A stretch of 52,291 nt of DNA from Escherichia phage Rac-SA53, in the sequence record KU052037.1; one strand, given 5' to 3'. Position numbers: made by a program. Positions within the stretch are counted from its first letter, which is position 1; every line of letters starts with the position of its first letter. Shown piece after piece: positions 1 through 3,000 of the stretch.

Positions 1-3000
1 GGTATCGCACAGATGCGACGGCACCACATTCTGCATCGCGCTGAACATCGTCTCGATACGCCCTGGATAACGTTTATCCCAGTCACGCAACATGTCAGCA
101 ATCACCTGACGTTGCAGGTTAGGCTGTGAACCGCACAGGTTGCACGGAATAATCGGGAACGCTTTTGCATCGGCAAATCGCTGAATATCTTTCTCGCGGC
201 AGTAGGCCAGCGGACGAATAACGATATGTTTGCCATCATCGCTCATCAGTTTCGGAGGCATACCTTTCATCTTGCCGCCGTAGAACATATTTAAGAACAA
301 CGTTTGCAGGATATCGTCACGATGGTGACCCAACGCGATCTTCGTCGCCCCCAGTTCCGTTGCGGTACGATAAAGGATACCGCGACGAAGGCGAGAACAC
401 AGTGAGCAAGTGGTTTTGCCCTCTGGAATCTTCTCTTTCACGATACCGTAAGTATTCTCTTCAACAATCTTGTACTCAACGCCCAGCTTTTCAAGATACT
501 CGGGCAGAACGTGTTCCGGGAAGCCCGGTTGCTTTTGATCGAGGTTAACAGCCACCAGCGAAAAATTGATTGGCGCGCTTTGCTGCAAATTGCGCAGAAT
601 CTCCAGCATGGTATAGCTGTCTTTACCCCCGGAGAGGCAAACCATGATGCGATCGCCTTCTTCAATCATATTGAAGTCAGCAATGGCTTCGCCCACGTTA
701 CGACGCAGACGTTTTTGTAATTTGTTCAGGTTGTATATCTCTTTCTTCGTATTCTTTTGATTTTCTTGCATTATTTCAGTTCTCTGGTACTAAATGGGGC
801 AAATTGGGGGCAAACTTTGCAACTACGGTAACCGCGCATTCAACATAGCTACCTGTTCGTCGTTCATGTCATCAATCCACATACCGTAAATTTCATACAC
901 CATCTGCGCAGTTTCATGCCCCATCTGGCTGGCTATAAATGCCGGGTTCGCTCCTGCCGTCAACAGCCAGCAGGCAAAAGTATGTCGCGTATGGTACGGA
1001 TTACGGCGGCGAATACCAGCACGTTTTACAGCTGCATTCCATCTCGCTCCCAAACTGCTTACCGAGTAATAAGGTTTCTGTTTTCCGTTACACACCCTGG
1101 GCATGAAAACAAAATGCAGTTTTTGCTTTTCAGTTCTGCCGTACTCCCGATGATAAAAAGTGATTTCGCTTTTGCGATGATGCCCGGTCAGTTTGTATTG
1201 CTCCTTCAGTGCTTCAAGAGCCGGCTGCAGTAATGTTACCGTCCGGATCCCGGCATTTGTTTTTGGGGGACCGAACATATCAAGTATCGTCAGGTTTCTT
1301 CTGACATTCACAATTCCCTTCTCGAAATCCACATCCTCCCATGCCAGAGCAGCCAGTTCCCCGTGACGAAGCCCGGAGTAAACGGCAAATTTCCACAAGT
1401 TCTGGCTCTGTCCTTTTTCACTTTCCATTAATGCATTGAATTCTGTTTTAGATAACGGATCAGGCTTTATTCTGTTTCGCTGTAATTTTTTTACTCCTTC
1501 AAATGGTTTGGTTGATATAAATCCCGACTGATACGCAAAACGTAACAACGAACAGAGCAGAGCGATATAGTTATCAACTGTGCGCACGGTTCTTCCTTTT
1601 TTGTTGGATCTTGGATTATCCAGGTAAAGCGTTTCTCCATGCAGTAGTTCATTCCGGTAGTTTAAGATATCGCTATAACGAATATGTGATATTGGGGTAC
1701 TCTCACAAATTATTATCCTGAGTGTTTTTAATTGTGATTTCGTTTTCTTCATTGTGTTTGTTGTTAACTCTGTCTCTTTAATTTTTGTCCAGATATCACA
1801 AAGCTCCCCGAATGTTTTTATGACCTTCGTTGTCACCATTTTTGCCCCAGTGCTGGACTGGGGAAAACGTCTTAAATACTCGAATTCGCCGGAATTGATT
1901 TCGTGAACTATCAACGCTCTTAAATTCCCGGCCTTTTTAATATTACTGTTAGTAACCTCCCAGCCTTTCAATGTTTCCCGACATCGTTTTCCTCGAAACA
2001 TGAACCAGATGCGAATGTATTTTCCCCGAATCTCGACACCTGTTGGTAATTTAGACATATCATGAGTCTTTGATAAACTGATTTATCTTCGGATAGTTGT
2101 ACCAGATAATCCCTCGCTTGCTGTCTGGCTTACCTAAAGGAGATACTCGTTTGAAGTGGAAGCCTTCCACCCAACAGTTCTGGCGGTATGCTTCAATTTG
2201 TCTGGCCCCCAGACCAGTACGAAGCATCAGACCGTATTCAACCATCCACTCTTCATTAAAGATCACTTGTGCCATCGCATCACCTCTGGCAGGCGCCAAT
2301 GTTAGACTGAAATTGACGCCCGATGTTGATTATTAATAATCAGCTATGAAGTTTTAATTTGAATACAATGCAATTCACGAGGACTGAAGTTTCTCGCAAT
2401 TAAAATTTATCAGTTTTACTTTCTGCTCTCTGGAAACGCCTGCTTCTTTTTTCCCTGAGAGCATTTTTTCGCATTCCGATTTGGTTAACTTTGTTTTTGA
2501 GTACCTTGTCCAGTTAGTAGGAGTGCCACCTTCCTTTTCAATAGTGGCGGTAATTTTATACATGAACACCTCCATTATTATTTCCAGTGGTTCGTTTATT
2601 CCATCGTTCGAGTGCTTCTTTTTCACTTCCACCATAGCCGGTTCGGGATTCGCATCCGTTACACTTCGCGCGGTAATATCCTGAAATGGCTTTCACCGTT
2701 ACTGATGGACAACCACAAAAAGGGCATGGTTTGACTTTTTCATACCGCATTGTTTTTTCTCTCATATAATAAAATTTTGTGATGGCGGTGAGGCTACACC
2801 GCCAAAGTCAATATCAGGAGCCGATATATTCTGGTTTCATATCTGTCAGTGTCGTTTTATACGCCTCATATAATTCACCCAGATGTGGCCGGGCAGCATT
2901 CAGCGTATTTTCCAGAGCAGTAAATTTTTGTTCTGCTTCTGGATCACCTGATGAAGGAAGGTCATTTATCATCTTCTCGATACTGGCAATAGCATTGAGA

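Follow-up and report, generated by a model that had tools for sequence, protein, structure and literature searches.

Putative arm-type integrase sites on both attachment arms of the Rac-like prophage Rac-SA53

In phage lambda the arm-type motif is C/AAGTCACTAT, and the integrases (Int) of lambda and HK022 bind each other's arms. Tn916 Int-N binds 11-bp direct repeats in both arms of the transposon. Recombination directionality factors usually recognize direct repeats arranged in tandem within an att arm, and the X1/X2 sites of lambda Xis resemble tandem direct repeats spaced one helical turn apart. Rac is one of the most widespread prophages of E. coli. Its excision affects biofilm formation and TtcA function, and only its core and its excisionase have been described so far. 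The window analysed here, the whole 52,291-nucleotide stretch of record KU052037.1 (Escherichia phage Rac-SA53), contains a complete lambdoid prophage of the Rac type, about 51 kb long and inserted in the 5′ end of ttcA; Rac of K-12 is 23 kb long. Judged by its sequence, the attP of this ttcA-integrating element very probably contains five putative arm-type Int sites, possibly six, each an 11-mer built on GGGGCAA. The lysogen is likewise very likely to split them, so that attL has one tandem pair (P′) and attR has another tandem pair together with one or two sites further out (P). The arm-site reading is favoured because the motif is exceptional, confined to both arms, conserved, and located beside an integrase with an Arm-DNA-bind_2 domain.

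The 15-bp identity core TTGTTCAGGTTGTAT, the crossover region, is found at 722-736 inside the 5′ end of ttcA (attL) and at 51961-51975 (attR), where it is followed by the displaced native 5′ remnant of ttcA, called ttcC in K-12. The annotation of K-12 Rac starts at the same core base. A scan of the window finds the exact 11-mer AAATGGGGCAA three times, at 792-802, 51814-51824 and 51844-51854, together with the variants ATTGGGGGCAA at 803-813 and AAAAGGGGCAA at 51833-51843, all on the + strand. The original prediction had proposed a repeated motif on both prophage arms in a single orientation. This holds, although the left copy, which it placed at 793-803, starts one base earlier. The adjacent variant that it saw on the left is ATTGGGGGCAA. 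The three copies that it put at 51814-51854, just inside attR, are present, but the middle one is the variant AAAAGGGGCAA and only the outer two are exact. All five 11-mers have the same orientation and lie no more than 155 bp from the att core; the motif is distinct from the core sequence, and its copies on either arm lie about 150 bp or less from the crossover.

The expected number of exact copies of AAATGGGGCAA is about 0.026 per window. When one mismatch is allowed there are seven matches against 1.95 expected, a count reached in none of 100 shuffles, and the matches outside the arms (25209, 50543 and 51243) are lone singletons. The heptamer GGGGCAA, common to all five sites, occurs 14 times in the window, and five of these copies fall inside the 320 bp of phage sequence that adjoin the two att cores (Poisson P = 4e-9). 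GGGGCA pairs phased by 11 bp occur only at 796 and 51837 when both strands of the whole window are scanned. The frequency of the motif is thus not that of chance, and its other near-matches are isolated.

Start-to-start spacing is 11 bp on the left arm and 19 then 11 bp on the right. Relative to the start of the core, GGGGCAA lies at +74 and +85 on the P′ arm and at −143, −124 and −113 on the P arm. The P′ sites are located between the core and the int stop codon (823-825), and the P sites 107-147 bp inside attR. The putative P′1 site (792-802) reads TTGCCCCATTT on the int-coding strand. The putative P′2 site (803-813) is in 11-bp register with it and ends 9 bp from the int stop. On the P arm the candidate sites are an outer copy of AAATGGGGCAA at 51814-51824 and a core-proximal pair, with AAAAGGGGCAA (51833-51843) as the outer and AAATGGGGCAA (51844-51854) as the inner member. 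A candidate fourth P-arm site, the degenerate TTCGGTAGCAA at 51803-51813 on the + strand (offset −154), lies 11 bp outside the 51814 site and in register with it. If this weak copy is real, the P arm would consist of two pairs. The same position reads GTGGCAA in K-12 and is a full site, AGATAGGGGCAA, in phage PHB10.

PHB10 (MK524177), the Int of which is 69% identical, has both arms and the core joined in one contiguous attP, which lies mid-genome. The attP reconstructed from the two ends of the window is therefore real. GGGGCAA-type sites (AATAGGGGCAA) are found in PHB10 at −153, −141, −122, −110 (degenerate), +75 and +86 from a ttcA-like core. This geometry matches that of the window while the DNA between the sites has largely diverged. 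The PHB10 counterpart of P′1 is AATAGGGGCAT, at the same position, and that of P′2 is AATAGGGGCAA. K-12 Rac has the same 2+3 sites, so that the motif is not absent from related arms. Its P′1 and P′2 are identical to those of the window, and its P arm reads AAATGGGGCAA, AAAAGGGGCAA and AAAAGGGGCAA with spacings of 19 and 11 bp.

Of 5426 complete E. coli genomes, 1477 carry the P arm, in most cases with 80-95% identity. As a rule the alignments to them start at 51801-51810, which is at the outermost site, and the cargo differs further to the left. Among the matches listed in complete E. coli genomes, strain SA53-3 (NZ_CP076279) is the only one that matches 51780-51975 at 100%, and only 17 genomes match at 99% or more. 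An alignment of eight P arms takes in K-12 Rac, Salmonella SPF_0923, four diverse E. coli and PHB10. The core-proximal pair is kept in all eight. GGGGCAA is invariant in its outer member, and GGGCA in its inner member, which is degenerate (AGGGCAC) only in PHB10. The 51814 site is found in seven of the eight arms; one strain retains the proximal pair only. E. coli ECCWS199 has one extra 11-bp GGGGCAA unit and hence four full sites. Since 11 bp is not divisible by 3 and this strain differs in copy number by one whole unit, the repeats are non-coding. Two short open reading frames over the P-arm repeats (51702-51857 on the − strand and 51785-51892 on the + strand) were rejected as coding on the grounds of the 11-bp period and the one-unit strain variation. 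RefSeq lists a 51-aa 'hypothetical protein' spanning the repeats of ECCWS199, which is probably a spurious call.

Several other features of these arms can be recorded. The sequence ATTTTTGCCC at 51947-51956, 5 bp from the attR/attP core, is an inverted arm motif that is one G short (GGGCAAAAAT). It is conserved in all aligned E. coli Rac-like arms and not in PHB10, and it could be due to chance or could be an additional Int or XisR contact. A conserved block of the P arm at 51870-51890, GTAGCTTATTGTTGTTGCT, resembles the core region at 51961-51985 (TATTGTTCTTTCT; a 13-nt direct repeat, 85%) as well as the left half of the PHB10 core (TAGCTTATTCAGGTTG), and may be a core-like or accessory-protein site within the arm. 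In the record of the Salmonella 'phage' SPF_0923 (ON032529), sitABC stands beside a Rac-type P arm and core, in the place where phage cargo is expected. These are followed by host genes similar to uspF, ompN and ydbK, indicating that the record includes the chromosomal flank of an element integrated in ttcA.

The protein expected to bind these sites is encoded next to the P′ pair. The int gene (823-2058, − strand) specifies an IntR-type tyrosine integrase of 411 aa. Its N-terminal Arm-DNA-bind_2 domain (PF12167, formerly DUF3596) covers residues 5-69 (E 2e-26), encoded at about 1852-2046, and the catalytic domain PF00589 (Phage_integrase) covers residues 205-391. The same two-domain architecture is present in seven relatives. 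Smyshlyaev et al. (2021, PMC8138268) place the DUF3596 integrases in the IntBPP-1 subgroup, closest to IntTn916, and describe the arm-binding domain as three β-strands and one helix. A single-sequence AlphaFold model of residues 1-78, from which only the order of the secondary-structure elements was used, has three β-strands followed by helices, in the order of that description. A search of PDB sequences with Int returned the catalytic domain only (Tn1549 Int), with no N-domain relative detectable by sequence. Immediately upstream of int, an xisR-type gene (2060-2275, − strand) encodes a DUF1233 excisionase of 71 aa, the function of which was established in K-12 (PMC4632033).

The sites are conserved relative to their flanks in related elements and track the integrase family. 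Ten further phages with Int 28-69% identical share the layout: phi315 (933W-like), CharmingMan, Tritos, RCIP0034, CobraSix, Mulock, Aeromonas pAEv1818, Pseudomonas KT1, phiCTX and PHB10. Each has one 11-bp pair at the 3′ end of int and, some 170-210 bp beyond it, one or two more pairs, with a single orientation throughout. As Int diverges, the motif drifts from TGCCCCA in the enterobacterial and Aeromonas phages to TGCCCTAA in KT1 and GTTCCCA in phiCTX. An unbiased survey covered 80 species-level genome loci with Int relatives 30-99% identical from Enterobacterales, Pseudomonas, Halomonas, Legionella and Betaproteobacteria, 76 of them testable. The criterion was a (G/T)(C/T)CCC-type pair in 11-bp register within −100 to +150 of the int stop. 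Such a pair was present at 59 of the 76 loci as against two of 1298 control windows. In the reverse direction, 120 IMG/VR loci were chosen solely by TGCCCCA-N4-TGCCCCA, and at 70 of them an open reading frame of the int family ends within 150 bp on the same strand. A downstream stretch of at least 420 bp is available for 22 of these loci, and in four of them a second pair lies at a distance of about 210 bp. The sequence of at least some of the remaining loci continues into host genes (wrbA, pncB), as expected for integrated prophages. Int relatives taken directly from IMG/VR are nearly all 99-100% identical, on contigs that end at the int stop, and are uninformative on the arms.

The position of the P′ pair relative to int differs between subgroups. 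In the Rac clade (Int at least 59% identical) the pair starts 4-11 bp past the int stop. In the clade at 40-58% identity, which comprises 933W-, phiP27- and BP-4795-like elements, it lies inside int, 33-63 bp before the stop, and encodes C-terminal tails such as ...LSEFAPSMPH. The integrase gene of this clade therefore holds its own arm sites within the coding sequence. Most members of the wider clade have the P′ pair within int, where it encodes a C-terminal tail of the ...FAPSMPQ type. The chances are about even that the motif of Rac-SA53 exemplifies an arm-site code that is deeply conserved throughout the DUF3596 (IntBPP-1) clade of integrases. Such a code, for and against which the balance is similarly level, would combine a pair of xTGCCCCA units, in 11-bp register and located at the 3′ end of int, with one or two further pairs on the distal arm. 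It is an equally open bet that Rac shares it with Stx-converting (Shiga toxin-converting) phages of the 933W/Sakai type, phiP27-like phages and elements of Pseudomonas, Halomonas and Betaproteobacteria.

A mechanism can be outlined in which the N-terminal Arm-DNA-bind_2 domain of a heterobivalent Int would bind the GGGGCAA 11-mers. At each pair phased by 11 bp two Int protomers would lie next to each other, both on one face of the helix, and the core-binding and catalytic domains of these protomers would engage the core TTGTTCAGGTTGTAT. The arms could be folded back by bends at two IHF-like sites. The first, CATCAGATGGTTG at 51932-51944 (+ strand), has one mismatch to the IHF consensus, is preceded by an A/T-rich tract and lies 17 bp from the core on the P side. 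A bend at this candidate site would enable Int to span the distance between P arm and core, and the equivalent position of PHB10 has a perfect consensus, TATCAATGAGTTG. The second, AATCAAAAGAATA at 750-762 (− strand), also with one mismatch, lies between the core and the P′ pair, 14 bp from the core, in ttcA codons supplied by the phage. Its K-12 Rac equivalent, AATCAACAAATTA, is a perfect match. As the consensus is not enriched across the window, both are put forward as putative IHF sites. The resulting intasome would perform integration (attP x attB) and, together with XisR, excision (attL x attR). A perfect IHF consensus is also found in the native ttcA remnant at 51989-52001 on the − strand, where the phage copy (750-762) has its mismatch.

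The computational tests of the Int domain, of the attP, of the relatives and of the excisionase alternative all came out as the original prediction of arm-type sites would have it, which supports that reading at the level of sequence. Several points weigh against it. The model of the N-domain is of low confidence (predicted local distance difference test score, pLDDT, 54). The IHF sites are matches at consensus level, to a pattern that occurs 113 times in the window against 99 expected. The number and layout of the sites differ from those of lambda, which has P1, P2 and P′1-3, whereas here tandem pairs share one orientation. The literature yielded no Int binding or mutation data at these sites. 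In most relatives DUF1233 accompanies Int, and the separation of Int from Xis rests on one published electrophoretic mobility shift assay (EMSA) and on phiCTX.

This last point concerns the alternative that the repeats are binding sites of the excisionase XisR (DUF1233), a recombination directionality factor. Tandem direct repeats one helical turn apart resemble the X1/X2 sites of lambda Xis, and XisR binds a 294-bp attR fragment that contains the repeats (PMC4632033). A DUF1233 excisionase accompanies Int in all eight enterobacterial relatives examined, so that co-occurrence cannot separate the two proteins. Relatives with an excisionase of another family, sought for this separation, were not found among the enterobacterial phages, all of which have DUF1233. 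The EMSA itself, performed with K-12 Rac by Liu et al. (2015, PMC4632033), is more discriminating. XisR shifts the 294-bp AttR probe but not the 291-bp AttM fragment that served as negative control. When mapped to K-12 (locus L095), the AttM primers span 1169-1459 and the fragment ends one base before the core; GGGGCAA is found within it at 1317, 1336 and 1347. The fragment not bound by XisR thus holds all three P-arm sites of K-12 Rac, and the repeats are therefore not sufficient for XisR binding. By primer mapping, the AttR probe adds the core and 109 bp of bacterial DNA (K-12 L095 1169-1583 corresponds to about 51690-52085 of the window). It follows from this mapping that the P arm alone does not suffice for XisR, which would require the core and/or the bacterial side of attR for binding, in contrast to lambda Xis. 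In addition, a six-frame hidden Markov model search of phiCTX finds no DUF1233 homolog (best E 1.2), yet in this phage comparable pairs in 11-bp register flank the attP core on either side. According to PMC3448106, no counterpart of Cox/Apl is known from phiCTX either. It is Int sites, not Xis sites, that typically share an identical motif between the two arms. Excisionase binding is accordingly a very improbable explanation of the repeats.

A role that is mainly regulatory has a similarly slight chance of being correct. Here Int would bind the sites, which would act as an operator for int/xis read-through or for expression of the hybrid ttcA. The P′ pair does lie 21-44 bp upstream of the hybrid ttcA ATG (771-769, − strand) and 9 bp downstream of the int stop, and in most relatives the pair is within the int coding sequence. 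However, no σ70-like promoter or terminator is predicted at 600-1100, and promoter and terminator scans of both arms show nothing at the sites. The motif also occurs at a distance of 51 kb, on the distal arm, which has no comparable gene context, and relatives that integrate at other loci retain the pair. Rfam and tRNA scans of the window detect no family or tRNA overlapping the sites. Least probable of all is replication slippage of an 11-bp unit in A/G-rich DNA without any function: slippage does occur, as the additional unit of ECCWS199 demonstrates, but the comparative data effectively refute it as the explanation, since 51 kb separate the two clusters in the lysogen and their distances from the core are conserved, pairs are conserved across Gamma- and Betaproteobacteria among phages with Int only 28-45% identical, and GGGGCAA is invariant in the P-arm alignment whereas the spacers diverge.

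The setting of the arm sites is that of Rac. Membership is indicated by insertion in the 5′ end of ttcA, the IntR/XisR module at attL, a core and arms identical or nearly identical to those of K-12 Rac, and the RalA small RNA. The ttcA gene runs on the − strand from the window start to an ATG at 771-769, and its 5′ end and upstream region are supplied by the phage, producing a hybrid ttcA. To the right of attR lies the native ttcA 5′ remnant and then uspF, as in K-12. The phage copy (722-771) gives TtcA another N-terminus than the native MSQNQEISKKEQYNLNK (compare 51961-52010). Identity between phage and bacterial DNA ends after 15 bp here, and attL and attR of K-12 Rac share 26 bp. A long imperfect hairpin at 51648-51694 (−25.2 kcal/mol, z = −3.2) follows directly on the DUF4376 tail-fibre-assembly gene. 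Similar sequence is present in K-12 Rac and in phage Tritos, and no T-run follows it on the + strand. Three regions of the window exceed the Rfam gathering score: 2379-2557 (RalA antitoxin small RNA, as in Rac), 17703-17878 (sok antitoxin RNA) and 42816-42899 (sRNA-Xcc1).

The arm sites would complete a working map of attP, attL and attR, which is useful for IntR as an integration tool and for calling prophage boundaries. The signature reaches Stx-converting phages, whose integrases share the arm motif, and this raises the possibility that arms are cross-recognized between resident prophages. If the clade-wide code is true, the integrases of co-resident prophages with different cores could bind each other's arms, leading to excision cross-talk in poly-lysogens such as O157:H7. 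The motif pair could then also be used as a sequence tag for the distal end (attR) of such prophages. Searches of the literature on arm-type sites of Rac, ttcA, 933W or DUF3596, and for the motif string, returned no account of these sites. While this kind of element is a textbook one, this instance and the breadth of the TGCCCCA-pair signature in the DUF3596 clade appear to be undescribed in the literature searched.

The attP of Rac-SA53 is similar to that of lambda in having a non-core motif on both arms within about 150 bp of the core, putative P′ sites beside int and about five candidate sites in all. Common to both is a heterobivalent Int with a separate N-terminal arm-binding domain, and the putative IHF sites of Rac-SA53 would lie between arm and core. 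The motif is different (AAATGGGGCAA versus C/AAGTCACTAT) and the N-domain belongs to another Pfam family, Arm-DNA-bind_2. The 11-bp tandem pairs of Rac-SA53 run in one direction, with two sites next to int and three to four on the opposite arm, and the excisionase is of the DUF1233 family. The Int arm sites of P2 and 186 follow the same logic of a pair on each arm. Their consensus sequences are tgTGGaCa and tgccGCCActt, their integrases belong to another subfamily and their excision factor is Cox/Apl. Tn916 is likened to Rac by description and not by sequence: the DUF3596 integrases (IntBPP-1) are nearest to IntTn916, with an arm-binding domain of three strands and one helix (PMC8138268), but Tn916 is a conjugative transposon of Firmicutes with another motif and another core behaviour. 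The phage phiCTX (NC_003278) is a member of the family itself, with an Int about 32-33% identical and an alignable N-terminal domain. Its GTTCCCA pairs lie in 11-bp register on both sides of the annotated attP core and in the same orientation. In contrast to Rac-SA53, phiCTX has a drifted motif and a tRNA-like core, is a P2-like myovirus and is without a DUF1233 excisionase. Its pairs are annotated in GenBank as 'R1, R2 repeats', that is merely as repeats and not as Int sites.

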